Shown: positions 1-46,406 of the stretch, piece by piece
How the letters are laid out: every line of letters begins with the position of its first letter
Numbering within the stretch: the stretch's first letter is position 1
NCBI GenBank assembly: GCA_043753995.1
Contig: JAYUVP010000141.1
Span: forward strand, 1-46,406
DNA: 46,406 nt
Direction of reading: 5' to 3'
Source of the DNA: Fibrobacterota bacterium
Lineage (GTDB): Bacteria > Fibrobacterota > Fibrobacteria > UBA11236
Notes under the pieces: model-generated
What the model was told of the DNA's origin: nothing
Seen by the model: the letters and a program-made list of their open reading frames with translations, nothing else
Databases searched by the model: none
Made by a program: the position numbers and the translations under genes

Positions 1-1184
1 CCCGAACCTTCCCGCCCCAATACCGTGGCCAAATCGAAGCGAAATCCGTCGACATGACATTCTTCGACGAGATAGCGAAGGCTGTCCATGGCCAGCCTAT
101 TCACGACGGGACTACCGAAATCAAGAGTATTGCCGCAACCCGTAACATTCCGGTAACTCCGTTTTTCGTGCTTGTCCCCTTCCAATGCATAATAGGCGAC
201 ATTGTCTAGGCCGCGAAAACTCAGGGTTGGCCCAAATTCACTGCCTTCCGCCGTATGGTTGTAAACCACATCGAGAATGATTTCGATTCCGGCGCGATGC
301 AATTCGCGCACCAGGGTCTTGAACTCATTGAGCGGCGCCAGCGGATCGGTTGTGGTGGCATAGTCCAGTTCAAGGCAGAAGAAAGCCGCCGTATTATAGC
401 CCCAATAATTCACCAAGCCGCGCTGGGTGAGGTGATCTTCAGAATATTTGGCCTGCACTGGCAATAACTCGACGGCATTGATGCCCAAGGCAGTCAGATG
501 AGGAATTTTTTCGATGAAGCCCAAATAGGTCCCAGGCGTCCGAACATCGGAAGAGGCATGGGCCGTAAAACCTTTGACATGCGCCTCATAGAGGATCAAA
601 TCCTCTAAGCGATGGTCAGGCTTGCGGACGCCTTGCCAATCAAAATTTTGAGGTCCGACCACGACGCATTTAGGCAAAACTCGCGCATTGCTGCGACGGT
701 CCATCACCAGGTCACGGTCGACATGATCAGGATCATAGGCCAAATGCAAATGCTCAACTGTACTGAATTTCCCCACCAAGGCTTTGGCATAGGGGTCAAT
801 CAAGAACTTGTAGGGGTTATAGCGGTGACCATGGCGCGGGTCCCACGGACCATCGGCCAGAAACGCGTAAAATTGGCCAGCCTGCAATCCTTGCACATGC
901 CCATGCCAAATGTCATGGGTGCGTTCTGGCAGGGGCAAAAGGGCTATAGGCTCGCCATAGGGCTGATCAAAAAGGGCTACAAAAACCGCATGGGCATGCT
1001 TGGAATAAACCGCGAAGCTCACCCCCTCCCGGTCGACGGTGGCTCCCAGGGGATAAGCCTTGGCTGGCCGAATGGAAAAAAACCGGCCACCCAAGGACGT
1101 GACGGTGATTTCGCCTCGCCGGTTACGGCGATGCAGGGATGGTGAGCGGTGATGAGCGCCGCGCCCGTGGCCACGAACAGACAT
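1..1184 (-). CDS. glgX: Host glycogen debranching enzyme/isoamylase (GH13), 5' part; runs off the left edge. Start is ATG 1184 or TTG 1094
   Basis: Manual minus-strand translation gives 'AYPLGATVDREGVSFAVYS' near 1010-1065 and the GH13 catalytic motif 'HVDGFRFDLATVLGR' near 10-60 in the same frame. Absent from the ORF track because it is partial. Confidence 0.9.
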   Translation of the reverse strand, partial: MSVRGHGRGAHHRSPSLHRRNRRGEITVTSLGGRFFSIRPAKAYPLGATVDREGVSFAVYSKHAHAVFVALFDQPYGEPIALLPLPERTHDIWHGHVQGLQAGQFYAFLADGPWDPRHGHRYNPYKFLIDPYAKALVGKFSTVEHLHLAYDPDHVDRDLVMDRRSNARVLPKCVVVGPQNFDWQGVRKPDHRLEDLILYEAHVKGFTAHASSDVRTPGTYLGFIEKIPHLTALGINAVELLPVQAKYSEDHLTQRGLVNYWGYNTAAFFCLELDYATTTDPLAPLNEFKTLVRELHRAGIEIILDVVYNHTAEGSEFGPTLSFRGLDNVAYYALEGDKHEKRSYRNVTGCGNTLDFGSPVVNRLAMDSLRYLVEECHVDGFRFDLATVLGREGS

Positions 1185-1218
1185 GCTGGGGGACTCGTTG
1201 AGGCTCCAAGGCAAATTT

Positions 1219-1243
1219 CCCCGGAGGCGGAAGGATTTGAACC
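1219..1243. repeat. attL core CCCCGGAGGCGGAAGGATTTGAACC (displaced tRNA 3' fragment)
   Basis: Identical to 46382-46406. The reverse complement GGTTCAAATCCTTCCGCCTCCG is a T-loop plus 3' acceptor strand. Just beyond the core this copy cannot complete the T-stem. Confidence 0.92.
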
Positions 1244-1370
1244 CTTGGTCTCGCCTATTGGGCGCAACCTGGGCACGCCTCTGGGCGGCAAATATAGTCC
1301 AAAATCGCCAATCTCTGGCCGCCATAGTACCGAAGGTATAACCCAAATCGGACAGGTCGGACAATCTGGC

Positions 1371-1390
1371 CGGGACTCGCGCCGGGACTC
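1371..1390. promoter_or_regulatory. Putative integrase arm-type site pair CGGGACTCGCGCCGGGACTC (attL side)
   Basis: Exact 20-bp match to 46319-46338; made of two CGGGACTC units with a 12-bp period. Confidence 0.75.
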
Positions 1391-1573
1391 TGCCAAAAAA
1401 TCCCGACCGGTAAAAAAAGGGCTCAGGGATGTTTCGCGCTCCCTGACCGTCCATGGTGCAGCCCTTCACTTCGCCAAGGCTTGGGCTACGTGGCACAACA
1501 ATTCCGCCTTGGTGCTTGGGGTTGAGATGGTCGAGGGGACCACAGGCAAGCAAAGGCCTGTGCGGGTGGAGCT

Positions 1574-2380
1574 ATGATGCTCGCCGCCCCTACCCGCCCC
1601 CTTGTGCGCTGGCACGGCGCCAAGTGGCGACTAGCCCCGTGGATCATCGAACAATTCCCGGCCCACCGCGTTTACGTCGAGCCCTATGGCGGCGGCGCTT
1701 CGGTCCTACTGCGAAAGGATCGCTCCTACGCCGAGGTCTACAACGACTTGGATGAGGAGATCGTCAACCTCTTCCAGGTGGCGCGAGACCATGGTGATGA
1801 ATTGGCTCGTCGCCTCGAACTCACCCCGTTTTCTCGGGTCGAATTCAAGGCCTCTTACGGTGATTCAACCGATCGAATAGAGCGCGCCCGACACACCATC
1901 ATCAAGGCCTATCAAGGGTTTGGCTCGAATAGCATTCATAGACTGAGCGGGTTCAGAAACAATTGCACGCTCTCCGGGTCTACGCCGGCAGGTGATTGGG
2001 CGACATACCCGACCGCATTGCGAAAAATTATTACAAGGCTTCAAGGTGTTGTGATTGAGAGTCGATACGCGATCAACATTTTGGAAATGTTCGACTCCCC
2101 AGAAACCTTGTTCTATGTGGACCCGCCGTATTTACCCGAAACTCGCAATCCTGGCCACGACTACGCGCACGAATTGACGGGTGAGGATCACCGCACGTTA
2201 TTGCATGCTCTCAACGAATCGAATGGCATGGTTGTCCTATCCGGCTACCCGTCGCCGATTTATGACGATGCGCTCCAGGGTTGGCGACGGTTAGAAAAAA
2301 AGACCATGGCCGATGGTGCGCGGCCAAGGACCGAGGTGCTTTGGTGTTCGCCGAACATCAAAACAGGACGCCTACTATGA
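1574..2380 (+). CDS. DNA adenine methyltransferase (D12/Dam-like class)
   Basis: RWHGAK, YVEPYGGGASV (SAM binding), NDLD and FYVDPPY motifs. Confidence 0.93.
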   Translation: MMLAAPTRPLVRWHGAKWRLAPWIIEQFPAHRVYVEPYGGGASVLLRKDRSYAEVYNDLDEEIVNLFQVARDHGDELARRLELTPFSRVEFKASYGDSTDRIERARHTIIKAYQGFGSNSIHRLSGFRNNCTLSGSTPAGDWATYPTALRKIITRLQGVVIESRYAINILEMFDSPETLFYVDPPYLPETRNPGHDYAHELTGEDHRTLLHALNESNGMVVLSGYPSPIYDDALQGWRRLEKKTMADGARPRTEVLWCSPNIKTGRLL

Positions 2381-3234
2381 CCGCATCAAAAATCGAATGG
2401 ACTGATCGCGTTTGGAATCCGGTGACCGGCTGCACCAAGGTTTCTGCGGGCTGCAAGAACTGCTACGCCGAGCGGTTCGCCGGCAGGAATATGGGCCAGT
2501 GGAAGGACCGAGATTTTGGTGATGTTAGGACGCATGAGGAGCGACTAAACGCGCCGCTGCACTGGCAAAAACCGGCAAAAATATTCGTGAATTCGATGAG
2601 CGATTTGTTTCACAAAGACGTGCCGTTCGATTTTATCGATCGCGTTTTCTTAGTGATGGCGTCGACACTTCACCATACCTATCAGATTTTGACCAAGCGC
2701 CCAGATAGGATGCTTGAATATTTATCAACATCAAAGCACAGAACCAGGTCGCATGATTGGTCGCGGATAACCCCACTCCCAAATGTTCACCTTGGTATTT
2801 CCGTCGAGAATCAAAAGGCTGCGGATGAGCGCGTATCGCTTTTGCTGCGATGCCCTTCGGCGGTTCGGTTTCTGAGCTGCGAGCCTATGCTTGGTCCGGT
2901 TCAAGTATTCGATGAAATGACCGCTGAGCTTCTTTTCCATAGCGGCAATGATTACGAGCCTGGAGCTATCGACTGGATAATATGCGGCGGAGAAAGCGGC
3001 CCAGGTGCGCGACCTATGCACCCAGATTGGGCGAGGTCGTTGCGCGACCAATGCAAAGTCGCAGCCGTGCCGTTCCATTTTAAGCAATGGGGCGAGTGGA
3101 AACCAATCACACGAATAGACGGAATTCACGAATCACCATTCGGTGGACAAGTTTCGATTCGCGCAGGTAAAAAGAAATCAGGCCGCCTGCTTGATGGTGT
3201 CGAGCATAACGCTTTCCCGGTGGTGCGCCCATGA
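2377..3234 (+). CDS. DUF5131 / phage Gp37-Gp68 family radical-SAM-like protein
   Basis: IEWTDRVWNPVTGCTKVSAGCKNCYA (Cx6Cx2C), FVNSMSDLFH, GGESG and FKQWG motifs; ATGA overlap with the MTase. Confidence 0.92.
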   Translation: MTASKIEWTDRVWNPVTGCTKVSAGCKNCYAERFAGRNMGQWKDRDFGDVRTHEERLNAPLHWQKPAKIFVNSMSDLFHKDVPFDFIDRVFLVMASTLHHTYQILTKRPDRMLEYLSTSKHRTRSHDWSRITPLPNVHLGISVENQKAADERVSLLLRCPSAVRFLSCEPMLGPVQVFDEMTAELLFHSGNDYEPGAIDWIICGGESGPGARPMHPDWARSLRDQCKVAAVPFHFKQWGEWKPITRIDGIHESPFGGQVSIRAGKKKSGRLLDGVEHNAFPVVRP

Positions 3235-3608
3235 GAAACATGAGCTTCGCCCTCACCACCAAACAGCTCAAAGACGGAAGCAAAACCGTCACCCGTCGCC
3301 TTGGCTGGCAAAACCTCAAGTCTGGCGATCGGGTCATGGCTTGTGAAAAGTGTATGGGCCTTGGGCTAGGCGGCAAAATCGTCCACCTCGGTTGCATCAG
3401 CATCGTAAGCGTTCGCCGCGAACCGCTCAACGCGATAACTCAAGAGGACTGCGCGCGCGAAGGCTTCCCGAATTTCACACCAGATCAATTCGTGGCCATG
3501 TTCTGCGAGCACATGGGGTGCGATCCAGAAACCGAGGTAACTCGAATCGAATTTGAGAAAACCCAAGCCGCGGGCAAAGCGGCAAACCAACCCATGGAGA
3601 CAGCATGA
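3231..3608 (+). CDS. ASCH domain protein
   Basis: GSKTVTRR and 'ITQEDCAREGF...VTRIEF' are typical of ASCH domains; ATGA coupling. Confidence 0.85.
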   Translation: MRNMSFALTTKQLKDGSKTVTRRLGWQNLKSGDRVMACEKCMGLGLGGKIVHLGCISIVSVRREPLNAITQEDCAREGFPNFTPDQFVAMFCEHMGCDPETEVTRIEFEKTQAAGKAANQPMETA

Positions 3609-3952
3609 AAGCCCAGAAAATGGCCTGGTGGAAAACCGGCTACGGAAAGATGGATAGGCAGATGCAAGGCGACTTCGAACGTGCGCAGAAAATCGCGCAG
3701 GAGAGCGGAAAACCTTGCACCATCACATTGACCATCATCATCAACCCTCCTCGAACGAACGAGCCGGAGTATATGCCGGTGAAGTACAAGCGCAAGCTCA
3801 CCGAACCAGCCTACGCCTCGGCAGAGTGCGATCTCGTCTTGCGTGATGGCGTCGCGGTGTCGGATGCCGAGCAGCATCCCGACCAAGTCTTGCTGGATTT
3901 TGAAGAGAAAAACGAAATCACCCTGGCCCGCGCTAAGAAAGCCGCAGTCTAA
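3605..3952 (+). CDS. Hypothetical phage protein (YfdP-like partner)
   Basis: Coupled ORF; 'AQESGKPCTITLTIII.P' resembles the small proteins that precede DUF2303 genes. Confidence 0.55.
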   Translation: MKAQKMAWWKTGYGKMDRQMQGDFERAQKIAQESGKPCTITLTIIINPPRTNEPEYMPVKYKRKLTEPAYASAECDLVLRDGVAVSDAEQHPDQVLLDFEEKNEITLARAKKAAV

Positions 3953-4713
3953 TGAAAACCGAAAACCTCGTCATCAATGCTGATGGCAAAGAATTACTCC
4001 TCGGCGCCCACTTCCACACCCTGGAGGACATGACCCGTATCACCTTCGAGGCTCAAAACCTCATCGCCTTCGTGAGCTTTGTGAAGAAGCTGGAAGGCGA
4101 ATACCTGGTGATTTGTAAGCCTCAGCGGGTGGAGGCTTGGCCCAAGGAAATCAATCGTTATTCCCTGCCTTTGGCTACCTGCCAATTGCATGCGAGCGAA
4201 GCCCTTAGCCAACTATCCAAAATGGCGAACACCAAAAAGTCACTCGCCGACTTCGCCGAATTCATCGAGAGCTTCAAAGCCTTTTCGACCGAAGGTGCCC
4301 TGGAACTCCTCCCGAATCTGCGAAACTTCCGCATGAAAAAGGTCTTGTCCGTCAATGTCAGCGACGACCGCAAAGGGAATTTCGCCTATGCGGTTTCGCT
4401 CGAAAAGGGAGGGAATGATGATTTCACTCCTCCCGCGCTGCTGAAATTCAAGGTCCCTATTTTCAAATTCCACGCCGACACTTTCGAGCACGCTTTCGAG
4501 CTCTACTTCGATTCACGTCCCGAAGGTGAAACCGTGGCGATGAATTTCACTCTCAAGACCTTCACCTTCGATGAGGACTTGGAAGCGGCCAAAATCGAGG
4601 CAATCGATGCCGGACTTGAAGGCATCGAGAAAGACCAAATCCTTTGGGGTTCGCAAGCAGTCAAGGTGACCGACGATTCATGGAAGTACAAGAAGAATTC
4701 GGTAGAGAGCTAA
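3952..4713 (+). CDS. Hypothetical phage protein, possibly DUF2303/YfdQ-like
   Basis: TAATG coupling; size and the 'FAEFIE...FKVPIF' pattern. Confidence 0.5.
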   Translation: MKTENLVINADGKELLLGAHFHTLEDMTRITFEAQNLIAFVSFVKKLEGEYLVICKPQRVEAWPKEINRYSLPLATCQLHASEALSQLSKMANTKKSLADFAEFIESFKAFSTEGALELLPNLRNFRMKKVLSVNVSDDRKGNFAYAVSLEKGGNDDFTPPALLKFKVPIFKFHADTFEHAFELYFDSRPEGETVAMNFTLKTFTFDEDLEAAKIEAIDAGLEGIEKDQILWGSQAVKVTDDSWKYKKNSVES

Positions 4714-4728
4714 GCGCCAAGAATCCAT

Positions 4729-4831
4729 AAGGTCGCGACAGCATGAAAAAAGCACGTCCCGAGGCGCAAGCCTCCGAATCTGTCAACGATGCCTCCGGGT
4801 TGTGCCGCGGCATGGGTGTGGATGCGACCTT
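4729..4831 (+). ncRNA. Candidate multi-stem structured RNA in the leader of the replication gene
   Basis: AAGGTCGC/GCGACCTT closing stem; GACAG/CTGTC stem; GAGGC-GCAA-GCCTC GNRA hairpin; ATGCC/GGCAT stem. Confidence 0.4.
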
Positions 4832-4859
4832 TCCAAATTCAGTTAAGCAAGGAAAATAA

Positions 4860-5765
4860 GTGCCAAACCGCTATATCCGCGAAAGCATGATCGAATCGGA
4901 AACGATCAACTCGGTGAGCTTCCAGGCTGAGGTTACCTGGTTGCGCCTGCTTTTGACGGTGGATGATTGGGGACGATGCGAAGCAAGTATACCCCTTCTG
5001 CGACCAAAATTATTTCCGCTGCGTCTTGACCAGGTCCGAGAGGCCGATCTGCAACGATGGCTCGCCGAGTGCGAAAAGTCCGGGCTGATACGTTTCTACC
5101 AAATCCGAGGCAAGGCCCACGTTCAAATGATGAAATGGCGTAAGGGGCGAGCTTTGCAAAGCAAATATCCCGATCCACCACCCGAAATTCTCGCAGAATG
5201 TTATGCGGATGAAAACGGATGTTTACAGGCGCAAACATCGGAAAACATCAGTTTACAACCGAATACAAATGCACCCGATAACGATCACGATAACGATCAC
5301 GATAACGATCACGATGGCGATATTTCGGATTCTGGGCCAGGCTTGCGAGATCGATTCGATGAGGCGCGAAAGCTGTATCCCGGCACCAAAGGCGGATTAA
5401 CCGTCGAGTGGTCCAATTTCGAGAAAAAATACCGAAAGGCTTTGGCTGAAATCATTCCAAAACTTTCGCCAGCAATCCAAAACGAGATCAACCACAAGCG
5501 GGAGTTGGCCGCCAAAGGGCAGTTCGTGGCCGCCTGGGCGCATTTCCGGACCTGGGTCAACCAAAGACGCTGGGAGCAGGAATTAGGGGCTTCTGGGCCC
5601 ATAGGAGGCGGAAATGCAAAACCAAATAATCGCGCCGAATTGGAAGCCGACGCGGCAAGAATTCGGCAGCGTCACGCCAACCGAAGCGCTCCTGACGGAC
5701 CTGATCGATTCGATGTACTGGGCAGCGAAGCAGCCGGCACCCAAGGGCGATATGCTGGCGCTTGA
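4860..5765 (+). CDS. Phage replication initiator (lambda O-like architecture)
   Basis: N-terminal wHTH-like 'LLLTVDDWGR...LRPKLFP', a repetitive linker, and C-terminal 'FDEARKLYP...FRTWVNQRRWE'; AAGGA RBS with GTG start. Confidence 0.8.
   Translation: MPNRYIRESMIESETINSVSFQAEVTWLRLLLTVDDWGRCEASIPLLRPKLFPLRLDQVREADLQRWLAECEKSGLIRFYQIRGKAHVQMMKWRKGRALQSKYPDPPPEILAECYADENGCLQAQTSENISLQPNTNAPDNDHDNDHDNDHDGDISDSGPGLRDRFDEARKLYPGTKGGLTVEWSNFEKKYRKALAEIIPKLSPAIQNEINHKRELAAKGQFVAAWAHFRTWVNQRRWEQELGASGPIGGGNAKPNNRAELEADAARIRQRHANRSAPDGPDRFDVLGSEAAGTQGRYAGA
5276..5315 (+). repeat. 12-bp tandem repeat (CGATAACGATCA) x3.3 in the initiator linker
   Basis: Directly visible; encodes DNDH repeats. Confidence 0.9.
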
Positions 5766-6060
5766 CATCGACATGGCGGCCAGGTATTGGCGAGACATCC
5801 CGGCACATTCCCTGCGGGAGGCGGTGGAGGCTGCAATCGTAAGGGCTGCGCCTTGGGCTGCGACCATCCCCCAGGTGGCGCAACTATGGCAGGACCGCAA
5901 GGCCGTGCCGAAGATGTTGGATCATGCCGCCGTGGGAAACCGCGACCGGATTTCTCGTGACCGGCAACTGCCATCACCTGAGACGCGATTACCCACCGAG
6001 CAGGAGCGTGAGGCGAATGCAGCGATGTTCCAGCGTCTTGCAGAAGGACTGCGGAAATGA
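5614..6060 (+). CDS. Putative helicase loader/inhibitor (lambda P / G39P position)
   Basis: Overlaps the end of the initiator gene; helical 'WRDIP...EAVEAA...ATIPQV'. Confidence 0.5.
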   Translation: MQNQIIAPNWKPTRQEFGSVTPTEALLTDLIDSMYWAAKQPAPKGDMLALDIDMAARYWRDIPAHSLREAVEAAIVRAAPWAATIPQVAQLWQDRKAVPKMLDHAAVGNRDRISRDRQLPSPETRLPTEQEREANAAMFQRLAEGLRK

Positions 6061-6527: not shown

Positions 6528-7111
6528 TTTCCAAATTGGAAATACCCAGTGTCGAAGAGCAAAGGCGGATCAACGACGAAATCAACTCTCGCATCGCCGA
6601 GAAAAAGCCCAAGACCAAACAGGATTACGTCACGCCGATGAATTTGATCGCAGAAATCGAGCTGCGCTTCGGACTGCAATTCGTGCTCGACCTGGCCGGA
6701 ACCGAAGAAAACAAGCGATGCGAGCACGTCATCACTCCCGAAGACGACAGTCTACTGGTGTCCTGGGAGGATCGGATGAATGGGATCCTGCTGAACGATA
6801 TGGCTTGGCATGGGATGGCTGCTGGCATGCGTCCGGCCGCGTGGCTAAATCCGGAGTTCGGCCAAACCGCGAAATACATGCGCAAGGCTGCCGACCAGGG
6901 AATCATCATGGTCTCCCTCACTCTGGCCAGCATTGGATCGGCGTGGTATCAGAATTTTGTCAGGCCAAATGCCATGAGCCTCATCACCGACCGCATCACC
7001 TTCGACGGCGAAACTCAAGGCTTTAACCGCGACACCATGATCTCGCTCTGGGGTATGGGACTGACGGGGCTGGGTTGGTGGGATCGGCGCGTTCTTGGAG
7101 CGAAACCATGA
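6524..7111 (+). CDS. Phage N6-adenine methyltransferase-like protein (T1 Dam family) with variant NPEF motif
   Basis: 'YVTP', 'FVLDLA', 'DSL.VSW', 'AWLNPEF' and 'RITF'; GGAGG RBS and ATGA overlap. Confidence 0.75.
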   Translation: MISKLEIPSVEEQRRINDEINSRIAEKKPKTKQDYVTPMNLIAEIELRFGLQFVLDLAGTEENKRCEHVITPEDDSLLVSWEDRMNGILLNDMAWHGMAAGMRPAAWLNPEFGQTAKYMRKAADQGIIMVSLTLASIGSAWYQNFVRPNAMSLITDRITFDGETQGFNRDTMISLWGMGLTGLGWWDRRVLGAKP

Positions 7112-7326
7112 GTGCGACCCATGAAGTCCAGCTATTTGGTCCTAGTGGCGCGCGCTGGCACCCATGTTCACTAGCTGATGCTCCCGCGAACCATACCGGC
7201 GACGAGTCATCGATATACGTCAAACTCCTTGGTGGTGCCATTATCGGGCCATGCCGAGCGGATCGCGTCAGGGTGATGGGGCATGAAAAAACCAAGAGCG
7301 AGAATCAAGGAGACCTATTCGCATGA
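7108..7326 (+). CDS. Hypothetical protein
   Basis: ATGA-coupled at both ends; ends in QGDLFA. Confidence 0.6.
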   Translation: MSATHEVQLFGPSGARWHPCSLADAPANHTGDESSIYVKLLGGAIIGPCRADRVRVMGHEKTKSENQGDLFA

Positions 7327-7820
7327 GGTGCGGTAAAAAGCTTCACAAGCTTCCAGACGGCGAAAAGGTCTGTAAGGAGTGTCGGCGAGCCTATGACAAA
7401 AAGCGTGGACGCGAGAAATACTTGCGCCTGAAGGCCGACCCCGCGGCTTATGCCGCCTTTTGTGCCGCGGATTATGCGCACCGCATGGAGCGCCTAAAAG
7501 ATCCAGCGAAGCGGGAGATGAAAAACAGGACCGACGCAAGGTCACGCAAGAAGCGCATGCAGGAAATCCCCGAGGTCCGCGAGCGGAGGTATAACAATGT
7601 CCGCCAATATCGCGCGAGAAAATTGCAGGAGGATCCGGGATGGGCGAAGCGCGAAAGGGAGCGCTTTGACAGGCTTGATCTGATTGAGAAGGAGCAGCGC
7701 GAGGCTGAACACGCCCAAGCCATGGCAGCCGCCCCCCTCATCGCGGCCAGAGCCTTGAAGCTTGCGGAAACGCGGGCAAGCGAGGAGCGTATGGGAATCA
7801 TCAGGAGGAGTGCCGCTTGA
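7323..7820 (+). CDS. Hypothetical basic protein with an N-terminal Cys cluster
   Basis: CKECRR followed by charged helical repeats; coupled ORF. Confidence 0.65.
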   Translation: MRCGKKLHKLPDGEKVCKECRRAYDKKRGREKYLRLKADPAAYAAFCAADYAHRMERLKDPAKREMKNRTDARSRKKRMQEIPEVRERRYNNVRQYRARKLQEDPGWAKRERERFDRLDLIEKEQREAEHAQAMAAAPLIAARALKLAETRASEERMGIIRRSAA

Positions 7821-8080
7821 GCTGCAGGGATTGCGGCAGCGCATCCTGTCGACCGCGATGTTTTCGCCTATGCCCCATTTGCAAGGGTGATGGGTGCGGC
7901 GGGTGCGCCAAAAGTATTGTGCCTGGCGTCGTGGAATGTGGGGATGATTTCGAGCCAAGAATTGTGGTGTGTTCGCAATGGGGTGATCCTGAAATTGACG
8001 CACTGACTGCCGGAACGGAGCAAGGCCTATTTATAGCGATCGAAATGTCGCGAGACGCTTTAATTGAAATGGGAGAATGA
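7817..8080 (+). CDS. Small Cys-rich (Zn-binding) protein
   Basis: Several CxxC pairs; GGAGGAG RBS and TTG start overlapping the upstream stop. Confidence 0.55.
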   Translation: MSCRDCGSASCRPRCFRLCPICKGDGCGGCAKSIVPGVVECGDDFEPRIVVCSQWGDPEIDALTAGTEQGLFIAIEMSRDALIEMGE

Positions 8081-8081
8081 T

Positions 8082-8456
8082 ATGAAGTCAATATTTATAA
8101 AATCGTTGATAATTCTTTTCACGGCATCACTTTACGGGTGCATTACAGAAGCCGCCGATCGGCGAATAATCGACGAGACGATAAACCCCAAGGTCATGAC
8201 CTGGGACCACCCGGCAATCATTCGCTTTGGCGACACGGTAGCCGCCATAAATGGCCGGGCCTATGCCTACTATGCCAATGGGGTGGTGAGCTGGGGGCGC
8301 GTGACTGTGGTTGACTCGGCCGGGCTAGAAACGGATATCGGGTGCTATTGCTCGGAGCCTGGGGCGACAAAGCTTATCGCCTTTGTGGCCGAGTTCGAGG
8401 CGGTGCCTGGGGCGGTGGCAATTCGGTATCGCGGGGAGGTGGCAGAAGCGCCATGA
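8082..8456 (+). CDS. Putative lipoprotein
   Basis: MKSIFIKSLIILFTASLYG-C signal and lipobox; GGGAG RBS. Confidence 0.65.
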   Translation: MKSIFIKSLIILFTASLYGCITEAADRRIIDETINPKVMTWDHPAIIRFGDTVAAINGRAYAYYANGVVSWGRVTVVDSAGLETDIGCYCSEPGATKLIAFVAEFEAVPGAVAIRYRGEVAEAP

Positions 8457-8486
8457 CCGACACTCAGGAGATACCGTAACCCGCAT

Positions 8487-8548
8487 AATACTGCTTGCCT
8501 GCTCAGTATTGACATTGCCAGAAATATCACTACTGTATAACCCACAGT
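8487..8548 (+). promoter_or_regulatory. Sigma70-like promoter (TTGACA 8509, TACTGT 8531) flanked by two CTG...CAG palindromes
   Basis: AATACTG-N10-CAGTATT at 8487-8510 and ACTGT-N7-ACAGT at 8532-8548. Confidence 0.65.
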
Positions 8549-8792
8549 GACCAGCCTAACAGGTATCCAACTCAAAGTCTTAGAATTCCTAGTAGAATAC
8601 CAAGACCTCAATGGCTGCGGCCCAAGCCAAAGGACCATTGCGCAGCGATTCGAATGGGCTTCAAGTTATGCGCCCGTCTCCCACCTGGAGGCATTGGAAC
8701 GCAAGGGATATATCGCGAGGAAGCCGAGAATGCCGGGCCACATTCGGATTTTGAAGAGGCCGGAATCGGCGCAAGTGGCGGAGGCGGTTTAG
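8547..8792 (+). CDS. Stand-alone LexA-type DNA-binding (wHTH) protein
   Basis: 'LTGIQLKVLEFL...GCGPSQRTIA...HLEALERKGYI.R' matches the LexA N-terminal domain; no peptidase domain. Confidence 0.88.
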   Translation: MTSLTGIQLKVLEFLVEYQDLNGCGPSQRTIAQRFEWASSYAPVSHLEALERKGYIARKPRMPGHIRILKRPESAQVAEAV

Positions 8793-36365: not shown

Positions 36366-36557
36366 GTGCCCCGCAAAATACCTGAGTTCGAGGCGAGCCG
36401 CGAAAGGTTCGACGCGGCCTTTTGTGCTGCCATCCTGGAGGCTGCCGAGGTACGGCGGGCTGGTGAGGATATGGCGGCTTGGTTTATTTCGAGGCCTGAG
36501 ACTGCGCGGGACGACAGCCCCGAGGCAGAGCAGATAGTGATTTGGGAGGCGGCCTAA
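36366..36557 (+). CDS. Small hypothetical protein
   Basis: Fills the gap and converges on the repressor gene; weak RBS. Confidence 0.4.
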   Translation: MPRKIPEFEASRERFDAAFCAAILEAAEVRRAGEDMAAWFISRPETARDDSPEAEQIVIWEAA

Positions 36558-37177
36558 GCCACCCCCTTCACAACCATTTCCAAAATCTCATTTGTCCGCC
36601 GCGTGACCAGCTCTTGCAGCGTGCCCGACAGCCCCGCCCGCTTCTCCAAAGTCACCATCTCGGCCGCCATCCTGCAGAGGGTCGCGAACCTATCCGCGGG
36701 CATGTGCAAGCCGCGCTGGGCCAGGGCCTCGCCGAGGATGCGGACTGAGGTCTCCACTGTGTCGGGGGCGATGCAAATGCCGGGGAGGGTGACTACGGGG
36801 GTGGGCTCTTCCACCAGGCCGAATCCCTCGGTGGGTGGATTGGGATCCCAGCCACCACCGGAGAGGGTCACGACGTGGCGTATGCCTGCTTTTTCTGTTG
36901 GGCCAGCCTTGATTGACTCGAGTTTTATTGGCTGACCTTGCACCCGCACCACTTCGAGTCGGATGCCAGGGTTGAGCATATCCCCGCGATCATCCTCATA
37001 CCAATCCATGCTCACACCCAAATCCTTCAGGGCTAGGCGGACCTTGTTTGGGGTTGGGCGAGTTCCTAGGTCGTAATAGGCATACACACGCTGATGCTGG
37101 CCTAGGGCCTCGCCCATTTCCGATTGAGTTAAGCCTAGGGCCTCCCTAAACTGGCGAATTTTGGTTAATCCAGGCAC
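36554..37177 (-). CDS. XRE-family HTH repressor (CI-like 1)
   Basis: IRQFREALGLTQSEMGEALG...G.RP...GVSMDW...G.GDML; divergent from the early genes. Confidence 0.88.
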   Translation of the reverse strand: MPGLTKIRQFREALGLTQSEMGEALGQHQRVYAYYDLGTRPTPNKVRLALKDLGVSMDWYEDDRGDMLNPGIRLEVVRVQGQPIKLESIKAGPTEKAGIRHVVTLSGGGWDPNPPTEGFGLVEEPTPVVTLPGICIAPDTVETSVRILGEALAQRGLHMPADRFATLCRMAAEMVTLEKRAGLSGTLQELVTRRTNEILEMVVKGVA

Positions 37178-37287
37178 AGAGTTAAAAAGATGTAAAATCT
37201 TTTTCTAGACCTAAAAAGGTCTTGCTGATTGAACTTCTTTGTTCTAATGTTATGAGCATGATTGAACATATCAAAGGCAATGTAGCC
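37178..37287. promoter_or_regulatory. Divergent promoter/operator region 1
   Basis: AT-rich; AAAAAGAT-N5-ATCTTTTT and AGACCT-N4-AGGTCT inverted repeats; TGATTGAAC direct repeat twice. Confidence 0.6.
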
Positions 37288-39936: not shown

Positions 39937-40155
39937 ATGTCTGAATCGACCAACATCCGAATCGACGAAAACCGCCTCCCTCGCTATCGCAAGCTGAGGA
40001 AGTCGGCCAAAGGCGCGACGGTGGCGGGAATAAGGATTCGTCGTTTGACTCATGATTTGGTGTATGAAATCGGCCTTGAGGCAATTGCTGAGGCCATAAA
40101 AAACCCCGGTTCGGCGGCAACCGTTCCGGGGCTAAACGTCAACCACCCTCGCTAA
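39937..40155 (+). CDS. Small basic DNA-binding protein in the Cro position
   Basis: AAGGA RBS; divergent from repressor 2. Confidence 0.6.
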   Translation: MSESTNIRIDENRLPRYRKLRKSAKGATVAGIRIRRLTHDLVYEIGLEAIAEAIKNPGSAATVPGLNVNHPR

Positions 40156-40168
40156 AAGGAAGCATGAC

Positions 40169-40993: not shown

Positions 40994-41187
40994 AGCGCAT
41001 GACCCCAGTGGCCCGCCTAACGCTCATGGCGGCCCAGTATTACGAGCGAGAGGAAATGTACCGCGCGATGGCCCAGCATGGGCGGGCCGATGACATGGCG
41101 ACTGCCAGGGCGGTCCTGGTGGGGCGGATTATCGACGCGGCCGAGTTTGTGCCGCTGCATTTGGTGAATCGAAAGGCTGGTGTGTGA
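40990..41187 (+). CDS. Hypothetical protein
   Basis: ATGA/GTGA-coupled; 3' part of track ORF 40567. Confidence 0.6.
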   Translation: MKRMTPVARLTLMAAQYYEREEMYRAMAQHGRADDMATARAVLVGRIIDAAEFVPLHLVNRKAGV

Positions 41188-42092
41188 TGAATATGGAAGT
41201 GACAAAGCCCGCCAATGCGGTTGCACTAATTTCTTTCAACGACATGCAAAGCATGGCGAAGGTGATTGTTAATAGCCGACTTTTCGGCATGCAGAACATC
41301 GACCAAGCGCTTGGGCTCATGCTCATCGCTCAAGCCCATGGCCGTCACCCGGCGCTCATCGCCGAGGAGTACGACATCATTCAGGGTCGCCCAGCCTTGA
41401 AATCACATTCGATGCTATCTCGCTTTCAGAACGCGGGCGGAAGGATCGAATGGATCGAGCGCACCGATACCGCGTGCGAGGCGGTCTTTTTCCACGACCA
41501 GAGTGGCACGCTAAAAGTCCGATGGACTTTTGAACAGGCACAAAAAGCAAACCTCACCGGAAAGGACAATTGGAAGAGACATCCTCGACAAATGCTTTCC
41601 GCGCGCGTTATTTCCGAGGGTGTCAAAGCCTGCTATCCGGCCTGCATCGGTTCGGCTTACACTCCAGAAGAAGTAATGGATTTTGACAATGTGCGGGAAG
41701 AAAAGCCAGAAATCACTGCGGCGACGGTCGTCGAAAGTACCCCCACAACCCAAGCGACCGAAGACCTCCAGCCCATGCCGCCCACGGTGGACATCCGCGC
41801 TTACCTAGGCGAGCATGCGGGATTAGTCGAAAGGTTTTTGCGTGTGAAGGGTGTCATTACTGACGGGAAAAACCTTTACAACCTTGGTGTCAAGGCCATG
41901 GCCAAGCTCTACCACGGATCGGAGGGCTACATCGCACAGGCCAAGGAGTGGGAAAAGAGTCTCACGAATATCACGCATGCGCCTACCCCTACCCCTGCTC
42001 CCGAGCCAAAGGAAGAGGCCGAGTCGGTCGCCCCAGAACTGAAACCCGAATTCGCGCCGGCAGAAGCCGTCGCCCAAGAGACCATAGCATGA
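41184..42092 (+). CDS. RecT/Bet-like single-strand annealing protein
   Basis: 'IIQGRPAL' and 'KDNWKRHPRQMLSARVISEG...YP...YTPEE'. Confidence 0.82.
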   Translation: MMNMEVTKPANAVALISFNDMQSMAKVIVNSRLFGMQNIDQALGLMLIAQAHGRHPALIAEEYDIIQGRPALKSHSMLSRFQNAGGRIEWIERTDTACEAVFFHDQSGTLKVRWTFEQAQKANLTGKDNWKRHPRQMLSARVISEGVKACYPACIGSAYTPEEVMDFDNVREEKPEITAATVVESTPTTQATEDLQPMPPTVDIRAYLGEHAGLVERFLRVKGVITDGKNLYNLGVKAMAKLYHGSEGYIAQAKEWEKSLTNITHAPTPTPAPEPKEEAESVAPELKPEFAPAEAVAQETIA

Positions 42093-42808
42093 GCACCACC
42101 AAACACCTGACGCTCTACGACCTCACCGAGGAGATGGATCTCGCCCTAGCCGAAATGGAGGCATGGGCGGCCGAGCATGAGGGAGACGTCTCCGATTTCC
42201 CGATGAATGATGTGACGGCCCAAGTCCGGCTTGCCCGCGATAAAAAAATCATCGCAGTAGCCCTTTGGGTGAAGGCTTTGGAAGCCGAGGGCGATGCCAT
42301 CGAGGCCGAGGAAAAGAAGCTCGCCAAGCGCAAAAAGTCCACTTATGCGCGCGCCGAAAGATTGCGCACCTACCTGGAAAACAATATGAGCCCAGCGGAG
42401 AAAATCAAGGATCCGCGCGTCGAAGTGTTTTTCAAAAAAAATCCACCATCCGTGAAACCTCTCATCAAGGTCGAGGAGATGCCCGGCGAATACCTCACCC
42501 GGCCCAAGCCGGAAATTAGCCTGTCGAAGCTCGAGGAAGACATGGTGGAAATCATGGAGCCGGTTTTCGACGAGCTTGGGGAACCGGTCTTTGAAACTGT
42601 TCCGATTGAAGAGCAAGACGGGCCAGCCGCTAACAATCGAAAACAAAAATTGCAGGCAGTAAAGATGGTGATTGCAGAAATCGCCGAGCCTGTCTTTGGT
42701 GAGGATGGCCAGCCCAAGACCGACCCGGAAACCGGCGAAGCGATCGTTAATCACGTCACGAAACCCATAGCCCGCCTGGTTCAGGTAATCAAGCTAAGCA
42801 TCAAGTAG
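42089..42808 (+). CDS. Siphovirus Gp157-like protein with C-terminal extension
   Basis: TLYDLT, 'KALEAEGDAIEAEEKKLAKRKK...ERLRTYL', KKNPPSV. Confidence 0.85.
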   Translation: MSTTKHLTLYDLTEEMDLALAEMEAWAAEHEGDVSDFPMNDVTAQVRLARDKKIIAVALWVKALEAEGDAIEAEEKKLAKRKKSTYARAERLRTYLENNMSPAEKIKDPRVEVFFKKNPPSVKPLIKVEEMPGEYLTRPKPEISLSKLEEDMVEIMEPVFDELGEPVFETVPIEEQDGPAANNRKQKLQAVKMVIAEIAEPVFGEDGQPKTDPETGEAIVNHVTKPIARLVQVIKLSIK

Positions 42809-42818
42809 GCGGCGCACT

Positions 42819-44170
42819 ATGACAACGGAAACCCAGGTGATGGAAGTCACAACGCAAAACATTCTCGATCCCAAATCAGCCTTGGGTCGCATGCTCGAAA
42901 AATTGGGCCGCATTGATTACAAGGTCAAACCGGAACACGTCGCCGACTTGAAGACGCGCGCCGAATCCGTTATCCAATCTGGAAAAACGGATAAGGACGC
43001 CTCCAAGCTGGCAAACACCATTCGGCTTGAGGCGCGGCGGCATCGGCTGGACGTTCAGAAGGATTTCAAGCTCGCCAAAGAAACGGTGAAGGAAATCGTA
43101 CAGGAGATTTCAGCAAAAACCAATGAGCGGGGCGAAAGGCTGATTGCGGATCTGGATGACATCGAGACGCCATTGCAGGCCATTGAGGACACCTTCGAGG
43201 CCAACAAAAAAGCCGAGGCGGAAAAGGCCGAAGCTGAGCGCCAAAAGAAGATCCGCGACCGCTTCGATGCTCTAGGAAAGGTCAACGCGAAGTTTGACTA
43301 TGTGGCTATCCAGATCATGAGCGACGAGTCCTACGGCGAGCTTTTGGCCAAAGCCGCGGCGGAATTCGAAAAGGTTGAGGCGGACAGGTTAGAGCGCCAG
43401 CAGGCCGAGCAGCAGGCGGAACGAGCGCGACAAGCGAAGGCGACTATTGGCCGTAGCCGTGCGAGTGAATTGGCGCAACTCGGAGACATCGTAGCTCCTG
43501 AGGTAGCGGCGGAATGGGATGAGTCGGTTTACTCGCTTCGACACGACGATGCCTCAGGCGAGAGGAGACGGCCAAGGAAACGCGAGATCGCGAAGCCAGG
43601 CTCAAGGACCGAGCCAAGCAGCTCACGCCCTATTGCATGCGCCCCGACCTTGATTTCCTGGCGACGTGCAGCGAGGATGAATTCGCCGCAACCCTGGAAA
43701 GCGCAAAAGCCGACTTCGAAGCGGATCGGATTCGCAAAGAACAGGAAGACCGGGAGGCTTTGGCCCGCCGAGACATGGCCAAGATTCGAAGCAATCGCCT
43801 TGCCCCAGTGGGCGGAGGGTTCAGCCTGGATACACTCGGTAGCATGAGTGAAGAGGAGTTCGATTCCATCTTCGAGGCCAAGACATCCAAGCACAACAAG
43901 GCGATAGCGGACAAGGCACAGGCCGACGCTGACGCCGTAGCCAAAGCGGAAACCGAGCGCCTTGCCGCCGAGAAAAAGCGGCAAGAGGAAATTGACCTTG
44001 CGCGGCCTGACGTCGAAAAGCTGGCCAACTACCTCGACTCGATCAGGCATGTGCCAAACATCATTTTGCAGTCGGAAGAGGCCATGGAGGTGTTCTCCGA
44101 TTTCGAAACGAAACTCTTCGACTTGATCTCTGAAACAAAAACCAAAGCCGCGAACTTAATCGCGAAATAA
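42819..44170 (+). pseudogene. Coiled-coil repeat protein interrupted by a 1-nt frameshift near 43552
   Basis: Protein-like composition switches from ORF 42819 to the frame of ORF 43637 at GATGCCTCAGG. Confidence 0.75.
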
Positions 44171-44179
44171 GGAACGATC

Positions 44180-44785
44180 ATGAAAGTGCTGGTATTCGAT
44201 CTCGAAGTCCGCGAACAGCCCGACATTGTCGGCTGGAAAAACTACGCCGCCCAAGGCATTTCATTCGGCTGTGCCTACCTCTATGGCTGCGAAGAATTCC
44301 GGTTGTACGGTGAGGAAAATATCACGAAGCTGATGGAAGACATGGAGGCCGCGGATCTCATTGTGGGCTTCAATATTCTCGATTTCGACATGCCCTTGCT
44401 GCGTGCCACCATTGAGCGCGTGACCGGGCATGGCGTCGACCATGAGAAATGGATGGGCCTACTCGCCAAGTGCTACGACATCCTGGCCGACATACGGGAT
44501 GCCCTGGGCACCAAGTTCGCCAAGGGCTGGAAGCTCGACCAGGTCGCGCAATCGAACCTTCAATTCACGAAAAACGGTGACGGAGCCTTGGCGCCTCAAC
44601 TCTGGAAGGATGGAAAGTTTGCCGAGCTTGCCACCTACGTGATTCAAGATGTGAAGGTGGAGAAGGCAATGTGGGAGCATGTGCTGACCTATGGCGAGGT
44701 GAAAAACAAATTCACTTTGCCAAGCCCGTTGAAGCTCAAGCAGATCGAGGCCGTGAAGGGTCGTTATTTGGTGGAGCAAGCCTAA
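44180..44785 (+). CDS. RNase H-like / DEDD 3'-5' exonuclease
   Basis: VFDLE, IVGFNILDFD, KLDQVA, Y.IQDV. Confidence 0.88.
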   Translation: MKVLVFDLEVREQPDIVGWKNYAAQGISFGCAYLYGCEEFRLYGEENITKLMEDMEAADLIVGFNILDFDMPLLRATIERVTGHGVDHEKWMGLLAKCYDILADIRDALGTKFAKGWKLDQVAQSNLQFTKNGDGALAPQLWKDGKFAELATYVIQDVKVEKAMWEHVLTYGEVKNKFTLPSPLKLKQIEAVKGRYLVEQA

Positions 44786-44792
44786 GATCACC

Positions 44793-44990
44793 ATGGCCAA
44801 CACCCGCGCAGCCTATTACACCCCTCACGACATCGCCGAGCGCATGGTGATTTCCGAGCGCACCGTCATCCGCATGTGTGAGGCGGGTGAAATGCCGGGA
44901 GCCATCAAGGTGCGCGGTCAATGGCGCATTTCGCGGTCTATCTTCGACGCGGCCGAGGGAAGAGCTTTGACCAATGGGGTGCTTGCATGA
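44793..44990 (+). CDS. xis: Excisionase (HTH_17/MerR-like)
   Basis: YYTPHDIAE...SERTV.RMC..GEMPGAIKV.GQWRI; coupled to int. Confidence 0.8.
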   Translation: MANTRAAYYTPHDIAERMVISERTVIRMCEAGEMPGAIKVRGQWRISRSIFDAAEGRALTNGVLA

Positions 44991-46135
44991 GCCCATACGA
45001 TAGAGCCCTCAAGCGCTTGCAGGCGGTGGAGCGGGATTTGACCGCGGGAAAAATCACGGCCGAGCAGGCCGAGGCGAAGCGCGCCGCTATCCGGAGCGCC
45101 GATCCGGCCTTTGTGGCCCGCTGGGAATTGGCGGATGGCACCGAAGCCACGGCGACCTTTCGCACGATGCGCGAGGCCGAGAAGCACGAAGCGAAGATGC
45201 GGGACAAGGTGGAGCGCGGAGAGTCCGCCGACCCAAAGCCGCTTCGCGCAAGCATTGTCGAGATCATGCAATACCATTTCGACAAGCGGTGTGGCAAAGG
45301 TGCGGGAGTTCGGAGCGCGCGAGCTCACGTCAACCATTGCCGGGAGATAATGGGCGAAGGCGTGACCTTTGAGCGGCTAAATAAATCACCGCTGAAAATT
45401 CTGGAGCCGTATTTCGATAAACTTCCCGAGGCGAAGCCGAAATCATTTGCCAGTGAGGCCAACATTTGGAATCACTATGTGCAAATGAAAGCCGCGATGG
45501 CCTTTTGGATAAAAATGCACAGGCTGGTTATCGCAAACCCATTGCAAGTCATGGAAATCGAGAAGCCGGATAATCGGCGAACGCAGGCCCCAACCAGCGA
45601 GCAGTTTTCGCGCTTGCTCGATGTTTCGACGCGGAATCAGTTTCCGTCGTGGCTCCCTAGCCTATTGATTTGCGGGTGGGAGGTAGCGCCGCGTATCTCC
45701 GAGATACTTTCCTGGCGCTGGGAGAACTTCCACGAAGCGGAAGGCCTCGACCTGCCTTGGGTGAAATCCTTCCTGGCCAAAAAGGGAAAGCCGGTATGGA
45801 GAGAGCTTCCCATTACCCATTCGGCCGCACAGGCTTTACGCGACATGCCCGCCCAGCAAAAAGAGCGCGGGGTGATTTTCCCATTGCAGGTAACCGCCAC
45901 TCTTCGATGGGTTCGCCAGGCCTTCGATTTGGCAGGCATGCAGGATTTCCGGTTTCACGATTTTCGCCGAAGCTGGAAGCGCCGATATTTGCACATCGGG
46001 TCCAAGCTTACCGCCGAGCTGACAGGCCATACCGAGGAGATGGATGATCGCTATACCGTCCTGGGGCGTCGGGAAATGCAGGAGGTTTACCGGGTGGGCA
46101 AAAGTGGCGAAAATCTTTCCTCAAAAACCGCTTGA
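44987..46135 (+). CDS. int: Tyrosine integrase
   Basis: R(ISEI), K, H-D-F-R, (LTG)H and (R)Y catalytic residues; next to attR. Confidence 0.93.
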   Translation: MSPYDRALKRLQAVERDLTAGKITAEQAEAKRAAIRSADPAFVARWELADGTEATATFRTMREAEKHEAKMRDKVERGESADPKPLRASIVEIMQYHFDKRCGKGAGVRSARAHVNHCREIMGEGVTFERLNKSPLKILEPYFDKLPEAKPKSFASEANIWNHYVQMKAAMAFWIKMHRLVIANPLQVMEIEKPDNRRTQAPTSEQFSRLLDVSTRNQFPSWLPSLLICGWEVAPRISEILSWRWENFHEAEGLDLPWVKSFLAKKGKPVWRELPITHSAAQALRDMPAQQKERGVIFPLQVTATLRWVRQAFDLAGMQDFRFHDFRRSWKRRYLHIGSKLTAELTGHTEEMDDRYTVLGRREMQEVYRVGKSGENLSSKTA

Positions 46136-46160
46136 CGATAAGCATTTAATTCCTTACTGT
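46132..46160 (+). promoter_or_regulatory. Sigma70-like promoter TTGACG-N17-TACTGT pointing toward attR
   Basis: Near-consensus hexamers with 17-bp spacing; AGGA RBS and RHH gene follow. Confidence 0.65.
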
Positions 46161-46177
46161 TCAGACAGGAAAAAGTG

Positions 46178-46363
46178 ATGGCAGGCAGAAAAAAATCTGA
46201 CGTACCGACCAAGGTCAAGGTGAACTACACCATTGATCCGGCACTCTTGGCTGAAATCGACAAGAGAACCAGTAATCGGTCTGGGTTTCTGAACACTGCT
46301 GGGTGGGAAAAAGTGAAGCGGGACTCGCGCCGGGACTCGAAGTCCGCGAAAGGTGAAAAATGA
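46178..46363 (+). CDS. Ribbon-helix-helix (CopG-like) protein
   Basis: KVKVNYTIDPALLAEID...NRSGFLN.A. Confidence 0.8.
   Translation: MAGRKKSDVPTKVKVNYTIDPALLAEIDKRTSNRSGFLNTAGWEKVKRDSRRDSKSAKGEK
46319..46338. promoter_or_regulatory. Putative integrase arm-type site pair (attR side)
   Basis: Exact 20-bp match to 1371-1390, 43 bp from the core. Confidence 0.75.
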
Positions 46364-46381
46364 CTAAAAACGCTACTTATA

Positions 46382-46406
46382 CCCCGGAGGCGGAAGGATT
46401 TGAACC
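46382..46406. repeat. attR core
   Basis: Identical 25-mer to 1219-1243, about 250 bp downstream of the integrase. The shared core could extend past the window edge. Confidence 0.92.
46385..46406 (-). tRNA. 3' end of a host tRNA, probably tRNA-Ser (partial; the rest is outside the window; CCA not encoded)
   Basis: GG-TTCAAAT-CCTTC T-arm, CGCCTCC acceptor strand and G discriminator. The anticodon is not visible, so the identity is inferred. Confidence 0.65.

Follow-up and report, generated by a model that had tools for sequence, protein, structure and literature searches.

Putative excision-gated replication in a Fibrobacterota prophage whose attachment site lies within a predicted translated linker

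The 46,406-nt contig JAYUVP010000141.1 of a Fibrobacterota bacterium (assembly GCA_043753995.1; Fibrobacteria, UBA11236), analyzed over its entire length and referred to below as the window, carries a 45-kb prophage of a tailed temperate phage. The replication genes of this prophage are probably connected to a promoter only once it has been excised as a circle. In the circular form, the phage attachment site (attP) lies inside an open reading frame (ORF), designated ORFx, which overlaps the stop codon of a small ribbon-helix-helix (RHH)-like gene at one end and the start codon of a DNA methyltransferase (MTase) gene at the other. We lean towards reading this arrangement as excision-gated replication, in which a single attP-crossing unit is cut by integration inside ORFx; its structure is supported by the data presented below, and the function is proposed on the basis of that structure.

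The prophage is the DNA bounded by two 25-nt att cores, CCCCGGAGGCGGAAGGATTTGAACC, located at positions 1219–1243 (attL) and 46382–46406 (attR). Exactly these two copies of the core were found in the whole parent genome (5.2 Mb in 356 contigs), the second being the last bases of the contig. The attL core, an exact repeat of attR, is covered without mismatch by a Logan contig corresponding to positions 39–1248. The core sequence is the reverse complement of the T-arm and the acceptor 3′ end of a tRNA, and the attR core corresponds to the 3′ end of a tRNA-Ser(CGA) on the minus strand; tRNA-Ser(CGA) genes whose 3′ end matches the core bar one or two bases were detected in seven genomes of the family. 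No complete tRNA was found in the window. The serine tRNAs of the parent assembly are Ser-GGA (two copies), Ser-GCT, and Ser-TGA. Ser-CGA was not found in this assembly, as would be expected if that gene sits just past the contig end. On the other side, attL is flanked by a host gene on the minus strand (3–1184) encoding a CBM48 and an alpha-amylase catalytic domain (Pfam CBM_48, 1.5e-14; Alpha-amylase, 1e-15), with its ATG located 34 nt from the core.

To obtain the attP form, the two ends of the prophage were fused in silico through the core. This fusion creates a stop-free plus-strand frame of 126 codons, ORFx, which runs from the ATG at 46360 to the stop codon at 1575–1577, and the attP core therefore lies within a protein-coding frame. 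The geometry and the overlaps are directly visible in the DNA. The ATG of the proximal part (46360–46406, plus strand; 15 codons up to and into the core) overlaps the stop codon of the RHH-like gene (ATGA, 46360–46363). The distal part (1218–1577, plus strand) spans the core as well as the P′ arm, and its stop codon overlaps the ATG of the MTase gene (ATGA, 1574–1577). Integration splits ORFx 22 nt past its start codon. Judging from the overlaps, the RHH-like gene, ORFx, and the operon extending from the MTase gene to the replication genes are predicted to form one translationally coupled chain in the circle. The G+C content of the three codon positions of ORFx (0.62/0.53/0.61) follows a pattern similar to that of the phage genes (0.57/0.47/0.62). 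Off-frame windows of 126 codons in the prophage were stop-free in 286 of 14186 cases (2.0%). A homologue search found no homologues of ORFx, and the prophage-form frame of the linker (1149–1577) showed no Pfam match.

As for the genes on both sides of the linker, the proximal group comprises three plus-strand genes. An excisionase-like gene, xis (44793–44990; Pfam HTH_17, 5.3e-9; PHROG excisionase families), has a stop codon overlapping the start of int, which encodes a tyrosine integrase (44987–46135; PHROG_1 integrase, 1.5e-24). The similarity of Int to Pfam PF00589 (E-value 1e-5, 25.8 bits) is under the cut-off of 27.1, and the catalytic residues R236, H324, R327, and Y356, in the R..H-x-x-R..Y arrangement, are invariant in six homologues. 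The RHH-like gene (46178–46363, 61 aa), the first gene of the attP-crossing unit, ends 18 nt before the core. The distal group begins with the gene of a D12-class N6-adenine DNA MTase (1574–2380, plus strand; Pfam, 8.9e-19; PHROG_56, 1.2e-62), which is the first recognizable gene past attP. It is followed on the same strand by DUF5131 and ASCH-like genes and two further genes of no named family (2377–4713). From 1574 to 4713 every junction is an overlap of 4 nt or 1 nt, with ATGA at 2377, 3231, and 3605. The next recognizable gene, which follows a gap of 29 nt and a possible ORF of 38 codons, encodes a replication initiation protein (4860–5765, plus strand), which matched five PHROG families so named (the best at 8.2e-12) and one family of primosomal proteins. 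A Dam methylase gene and further genes extend the series as far as 8456, and a 90-nt gap separates them from a gene encoding only a LexA DNA-binding domain, which is followed by the large terminase gene and structural genes. The preliminary description of this DNA had placed xis, int, and an RHH gene on the plus strand running into attR, with a tightly coupled MTase-to-replication operon beginning just inside attL on the same strand, and both placements are borne out by these coordinates and overlaps.

From the sequence we infer that a promoter is active upstream of the RHH-like gene, that RNA polymerase reads across attP, and that the distal genes are not transcribed as long as the prophage is integrated. 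In the circle, one co-directional unit would run from a promoter-like site after int through the RHH-like gene and ORFx, which includes the P′ arm and the core, into the MTase-to-replication operon. In the lysogen, the promoter-like site, the RHH-like gene, and the first 15 codons of ORFx would be left at attR facing outward, antisense to tRNA-Ser. At attL, the rest of ORFx, the MTase and replication initiator genes, and the genes up to 8456 would be left without a recognizable promoter, the DNA upstream of them being that of the host, antisense to the amylase-family gene, and having no recognizable plus-strand promoter. Upon induction or loss of the repressor, the early operon on the cro side (from 37.2 kb onward) would produce Xis and Int. 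Excision would then rebuild attP, so that the replication module is again served by the RHH promoter as well as by early read-through. Conversely, after infection, integration itself would turn the replication operon off.

The arrangement is conserved, as can be seen directly, in the only clear relative, a 43,081-nt contig (locus L016) from a genome of the same family. Its integrase is 38% identical to that of the window, and the phage is present in the attP form. The gene order in L016 is contiguous: int, a gap, two small ORFs (one of them Lar-like), the RHH gene, a tRNA-like core, a winged-helix gene, the replication initiator gene, and Dam. Thus, the order RHH, attP, replication initiator, Dam is common to both phages, whose replication initiators are 41% identical over 104 residues. 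The gap downstream of int in L016 contains a TATAAT hexamer (7169–7174) that was not flagged by the promoter scanner. In L016, a 78-codon ORF begins with an ATGA overlap with the RHH stop codon (7835–7838), crosses the core and the arm repeats, and ends with an ATGA overlap with the next gene (8068–8071). Off-frame 78-codon windows were stop-free in 1362 of 17526 cases (7.8%). The linker ORFs of the two phages show no visible similarity. Since their sequences are unlike and the frame and the couplings are kept, this fits a linker that is held open rather than a conserved protein. A rough estimate from the stop-free rates gives a joint chance of less than 1e-5 for an open frame, in the right frame, with both 4-nt overlaps, in two phages. 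The rest of the L016 contig contains a terminase gene near one end and a cI-like gene at 33.6 kb; neither a tRNA nor a terminal overlap was found in it.

Evidence for the circle comes from junction DNA, which was examined on assembled contigs of three DNA runs. In the source sample, the contig with the host flank (39–1248) and a 7213-nt contig of the right end of the phage share a terminal 30-mer consisting of the core and 5 nt of the left end of the phage. Such convergence is to be expected of an assembly graph with both the attL and the attP junctions, which would also account for the break of the window contig exactly at the core end. In a run of another study, a 424-nt contig joins a P-arm repeat, the core, and positions 1244–1292 of the window, with differences in 7 of 74 letters. 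By its sequence, this contig is the attP junction of a variant phage. In the source sample, the phage contig has a depth of 11.5 compared with 6.7 for the host flank, a ratio of about 1.7; these depths are only indicative, and the ratio suggests that the sample holds a mix of integrated and excised phage.

The promoter-like site of the attP-crossing unit, TTGACG (46132–46137)-N17-TACTGT (46155–46160), is located on the plus strand in the gap between int and the RHH-like gene. The −35 hexamer shares bases with the stop codon of int, and the end of the TACTGT hexamer is 18 nt upstream of the RHH ATG. This site had been described as a near-consensus promoter pointing across attR. The position is correct, but with 5 of 6 and 3 of 6 matching bases in the two hexamers it is not near-consensus, and the scanner did not flag it. 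Throughout the window, the promoter-scanner counts equaled those of shuffled sequences. The −10 box of the host appears to be of another type: TAnnTTTG, which we take to be a Bacteroidetes-type box, was found in 14 of 48 regions (60 nt) upstream of tRNA genes, compared with 0.006 expected per 60 nt, usually with TTGnnn 16–18 nt upstream. Scans for Escherichia coli-type promoters are therefore misleading in this genome. The looser motif TTGNNN-N16-18-TANNNT has 17 plus-strand matches in the prophage, of which 3 are in the non-coding 3.65% compared with about 0.6 expected, an enrichment that is suggestive only, the motif having been defined after the sites were seen. Each of these three sites (37222, 46132, and 8509) directly precedes a gene start. 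Since the 46132 site is one of them, it may well be real.

Of the other two sites, the PR-like TTGCTG-N17-TAATGT (37222–37250, plus strand) separates the cI-like gene from the cro-like one. The site TTGACA-N16-TACTGT (8509–8536, plus strand) precedes the gene with only a LexA DNA-binding domain (8547–8792, 81 aa) and marks the end of the attP-crossing unit. Its −10 hexamer overlaps an inverted repeat, CTGT-N7-ACAG. The stretch 8509–8549, directly before the LexA-domain gene, may form an autoregulated late or middle switch.

Just inside attL, the plus strand of 1244–1573 contains neither a TTG-N16-18-TA...T site nor a host-type TAnnTTTG box, and no plus-strand TAnnTTTG box was found upstream of 11992. 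The absence of a convincing promoter in 1244–1573, as claimed in the preliminary description, thus holds for these two types, but the scanner flags TGGGCA-N17-TATAGT (1270–1298, plus strand), a site matching 9 of 12 positions that mirrors the minus-strand box TATATTTG described below. A sigma-54-type motif at 1268–1288 was looked for by eye and rejected. Taken as a whole, the idea that att splits a co-directional transcription path retains its structural core, with the coupling through ORFx that recurs in L016, but not the promoter strength attributed to it.

Termination at attP had been named as an observation that would speak against the idea; scanning for intrinsic terminators predicted no plus-strand site across attP. 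No terminator-like sites were predicted on the plus strand of 1–6000, all six sites in this region being on the minus strand, and the single plus-strand site in 41000–46406 is inside recT. A relaxed scan of the joined region for hairpins followed by T runs yielded only one candidate of −5.2 kcal/mol, inside int. In L016, the scanner found no plus-strand terminator-like site in 6900–8500, and the relaxed scan gave one weak candidate (T4, −9.5 kcal/mol) at 7966. The reach of these scans is limited to intrinsic terminators, Rho-dependent termination being outside it. A translated linker is what we would expect if Rho-dependent termination must be avoided over a 380-nt recombination site.

The direct repeats flanking the core are consistent with the assignment of Int to the lambda-type integrases. 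The sequence CGGGACTC has four exact matches in the window, two on each side of the core and none elsewhere. The two P-arm copies (46319–46338, plus strand), which have a 12-nt period, are within the 3′ end of the RHH-like gene, and the two P′-arm copies are at 1371–1390 (plus strand). These repeats look like arm-type integrase sites surrounding a core shared with the host. Analogous repeats were found, by sequence only, in L016, where two copies of CGGGACAT are in the 3′ end of the RHH gene and three more of the same type are past the core, and in the genome G045, which has two copies of ATGACCAAA to either side of its core. Paired direct arm repeats flanking the core seem to be typical of this integrase group.

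The assignment of the 61-aa protein is less direct. It matches no Pfam family even at an E-value of 10. Its positional homologue in L016 (37% identity, E-value 6e-9) matches Pfam CcdA (1.1e-7; 32.5 bits, above the cut-off of 22.4), and a profile of the two sequences matches the Rv0298 antitoxin (0.0023). The 61-aa protein can thus be called RHH-like by proxy, via the L016 homologue. According to AlphaFold2 (monomer, alignment of two rows), it is a single long helix with a mean predicted local distance difference test score of 64.8, i.e., of low confidence. In a search of the phylum with the RHH profile, 4 of 296 genomes matched, two of these matches being weak and in unrelated-looking contexts with no tRNA.

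The opposite strand of attP also carries recognizable elements. A host-type −10 box, TATATTTG (1289–1296, minus strand), fits TAnnTTTG, lies between the core and the P′ arm, and points at the core; it is the sole match to TAnnTTTG in any non-coding gap of the window. Alignment with the tRNA genes of three relatives indicates a decayed copy of tRNA-Ser(CGA) at 1219–1284 (minus strand), antisense to ORFx, with about 26 nt (the anticodon arm) missing. From 1296 to 1219, the minus strand aligns in succession with the promoter box, the 5′ acceptor strand, the start of the D-arm, and the variable and T arms. Neither ARAGORN nor Rfam (at an E-value of 5) called this copy. By this alignment, the attP of the phage represents a decayed version, promoter included, of the tRNA gene that the phage targets. 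The box TATATTTG is directed towards the host amylase-family gene in the lysogen and towards the RHH-like gene and int, antisense to them, in the circle. In addition, a terminator-like hairpin followed by T7 (1412–1463, minus strand; −14.8 kcal/mol) is located between the P′ arm and the MTase gene. It is upstream of the TATATTTG box, and no minus-strand gene lies upstream of the hairpin for tens of kilobases. The amylase-family gene might depend on the TATATTTG box for its expression in the lysogen, but the arrangement in relatives is different. In two genomes of the family (G001, locus L036; G010, locus L038), tRNA-Ser(CGA) adjoins a CBM48/amylase gene that is 53% identical to that of the window and divergent from the tRNA gene. 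In this the window differs, since its tRNA 3′ end is co-directional with the amylase gene, 34 nt upstream; a paralogue or a rearrangement may account for the difference.

Almost all genes of the window are on one strand, and the region has a G+C content of about 60%. A cI-like HTH_3 gene on the minus strand (36554–37177) faces a cro-like ORF, downstream of which the plus strand carries genes for an anti-repressor homologue, RecT-like and Gam-like proteins, and an exonuclease, followed by xis, int, and the 61-aa ORF. An apparent 225-nt gap in this early operon is occupied by a 72-codon ORF (39938–40156, plus strand), within which there is a minus-strand terminator-like hairpin with T6 (40107–40123).

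Relatives of the integrase are few. They were found in 3 of 32 genomes of the family, one being weak (28%), and in 8 of 296 genomes of the phylum at an E-value of 1e-20; a protein search gave five relatives besides the window's own integrase. Scans of viral contigs with the single integrase protein and with an alignment found no relative, and neither did a first scan of genome contigs. A metagenome scan with the integrase yielded one 1880-nt fragment encoding its N-terminus only. An alignment of the replication protein had no match among viral contigs. Among 50,697 phage records, only one integrase (24.7% identity) and three replication-protein matches (24–33% identity) were detected. The sole fully delimited distant prophage is that of G045 (contig C50, 111545–154310; loci L029–L031), which is integrated in tRNA-Met with a 56-nt att repeat; in another genome, G046, no upstream att repeat was found.

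Several observations weigh against excision-gated replication. The design is common to only two genomes. Six more distant integrase relatives adjoin tRNA-Met and have no RHH gene, and in the G045 prophage, which also has none, attL is followed by stop codons and a weak hairpin, with no linker ORF. In L016, an upstream TTG (7978), and not the ATGA-coupled ATG (8068), could be the start codon of the gene past attP. The antisense strand is likewise open across attP in both phages, and the stop-free run may therefore partly reflect base composition. As for the promoter, the 46132 site agrees with the E. coli consensus, which is not that of the host, at 8 of 12 positions and, by eye, with the host box TAnnTTTG at 4 of its 6 specified positions. 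Sites of at least this quality number 48 on both strands of the window versus 38 ± 6 in Markov simulations, which is near chance, and the motif that singled it out was chosen with the sites in view. The perfect host-type box TATATTTG inside attP could drive convergent transcription into the path. Finally, Rho-dependent termination, roadblocks formed by Int and Xis, and promoters of an unfamiliar type within 1244–4860 are possible.

Some of these observations lead to other explanations. The MTase-to-replication operon may have its own promoter within 1244–4860, dependent on an alternative sigma factor or a phage activator, in which case excision is not needed. Fibrobacteria phages may follow promoter rules of their own, and consensus scans perform at chance level throughout the window; the flagged 9/12 site at 1270–1298 is on the plus strand, and the replication gene is preceded by the 29-nt gap and possible 38-codon ORF mentioned above. 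The unbroken overlaps of 4 nt or 1 nt from 1574 to 4713 argue against this, as does L016, where only about 13 nt separate the last arm repeat from the start of the first gene past attP, too few to accommodate a promoter. Moreover, if transcription began downstream, it would serve no purpose for the linker to be joined by ATGA overlaps to its two neighbours, as it is in each of the phages. We consider this explanation unlikely. The possibility that the split at att is real and the 46132 site is not the gate appears somewhat less unlikely, though still improbable. The site would then serve only the RHH-like gene, as a regulator or immunity function in the lysogen similar to Mnt of P22, and the replication genes would be transcribed by read-through from the cro side. 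The RHH-like gene indeed keeps its promoter-like site and a ribosome-binding site in the prophage, and an imperfect, operator-like inverted repeat, TTACTGT-N4-ACAGGAA (46153–46170), overlaps the −10 hexamer upstream of it. An anti-repressor homologue is encoded downstream of cro, and two extra small genes, one of them Lar-like, separate int from RHH in L016. Against this, the RHH-like gene is translationally coupled to the linker and thus to the operon past attP, so that it does not form an isolated cassette in the circle.

The least probable explanation, in our estimate, is that the arrangement is a neutral by-product of the position of attP in a genome read in one direction, with Xis and Int being early products anyway and the open frame being an effect of composition. 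It draws on the one-strand gene map, the G+C content of about 60% together with the open antisense frame, and the integrase relatives in six other genomes next to tRNA-Met, without RHH and, in G045, without a linker ORF. Composition does not account readily for a frame that begins and ends with an exact ATGA overlap in each of two phages with protein identities of only 31–41%, for which the rough chance estimate was given above, or for the match of the linker to the genes in codon-position G+C. Excision-gated replication remains the reading to which we incline. A stronger version of it is put forward tentatively, with somewhat more doubt than confidence: with the promoter and the first gene of the replication operon beyond attP, excision would license replication, and integration would turn it off, by wiring alone, giving an excise-then-replicate order without repressor control; the linker's sole job would be to carry ribosomes and RNA polymerase across att; and the other strand of attP would be a promoter-bearing decayed copy of the target tRNA.

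The classical phage case of expression that depends on the state of att is the sib region of lambda. An RNA-processing site beyond attP lowers int expression (retroregulation), and integration separates int from sib. The phage described here resembles lambda in that the att state would alter gene expression. In lambda, by contrast, O and P are prophage genes located downstream of PR, where they can function in situ.

The closest parallels to the proposed switch are found in conjugative elements. In the conjugative transposon Tn916, transfer functions need circularization, and transcripts read through the joined ends (Celli and Trieu-Cuot 1998, as cited in PMC5812530). The proposed likeness is that an outward-reading unit at one end becomes linked, upon excision, to co-directional genes of the opposite end, which would be expressed from the circle only; in the window, as in Tn916 and the Pcirc system, the co-directional distal genes have no promoter of their own, as regards recognizable promoter types. 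The differences are that the distal genes serve conjugation in Tn916 and replication in this tailed temperate phage, and that here a translated linker ORF is predicted to span att. In the integrative and conjugative elements (ICEs), according to the accounts of ICEclc Pcirc (PMC5812530) and of a promoter at the 3′ end of ICEKp1 (PMC13023037), an outward-facing promoter is joined across the att junction to genes upon excision. The gene switched on there is the integrase, which favours re-integration, whereas in the window the integrase is upstream of the junction and the MTase and replication initiator genes are beyond it.

Among phages, mycobacteriophage BPs has its attP inside the repressor gene, and integration removes a degradation tag from the protein (PMC4557955). 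As in BPs, attP of the window phage and of L016 is inside an ORF, and the integrated or excised state would be read out by gene structure. Unlike in BPs, the split gene is not an immunity repressor, the cI-like HTH_3 gene (36554–37177) being 9 kb away; ORFx has no recognizable domain or homologues, and the proposed effect is on transcription and on translational coupling downstream. According to PMC10111431, helper-embedded satellites of the phage-inducible chromosomal island (PICI) type interrupt a co-oriented phage unit by integration and restore it by excision, which sets timing. There, a satellite disrupts a late gene belonging to its helper; here, the phage's own attP would interrupt its own operon upon integration into the host. 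Word searches of open-access full text turned up cases among ICEs, satellites, and mycobacteriophages, but no phage whose attP separates the replication operon from its promoter. The principle is known from Tn916 and ICEs; what seems to be new is its use for the replication operon of a phage.

Whether a prophage is excised first or replicates in situ decides whether it drives lateral transduction, and the excise-before-replicate order has recently been revised even for P22, as reported in PMC8575938. If the proposed mechanism is true, the phage would have a hard-wired excise-first design, a phage counterpart of the circularization switches of Tn916 and ICEs. Further cases could then be sought in metagenomes by a simple sequence signature, a translated linker ORF that spans attP, and the arrangement described here would be among the first regulatory anatomy reported for a phage of Fibrobacteria.

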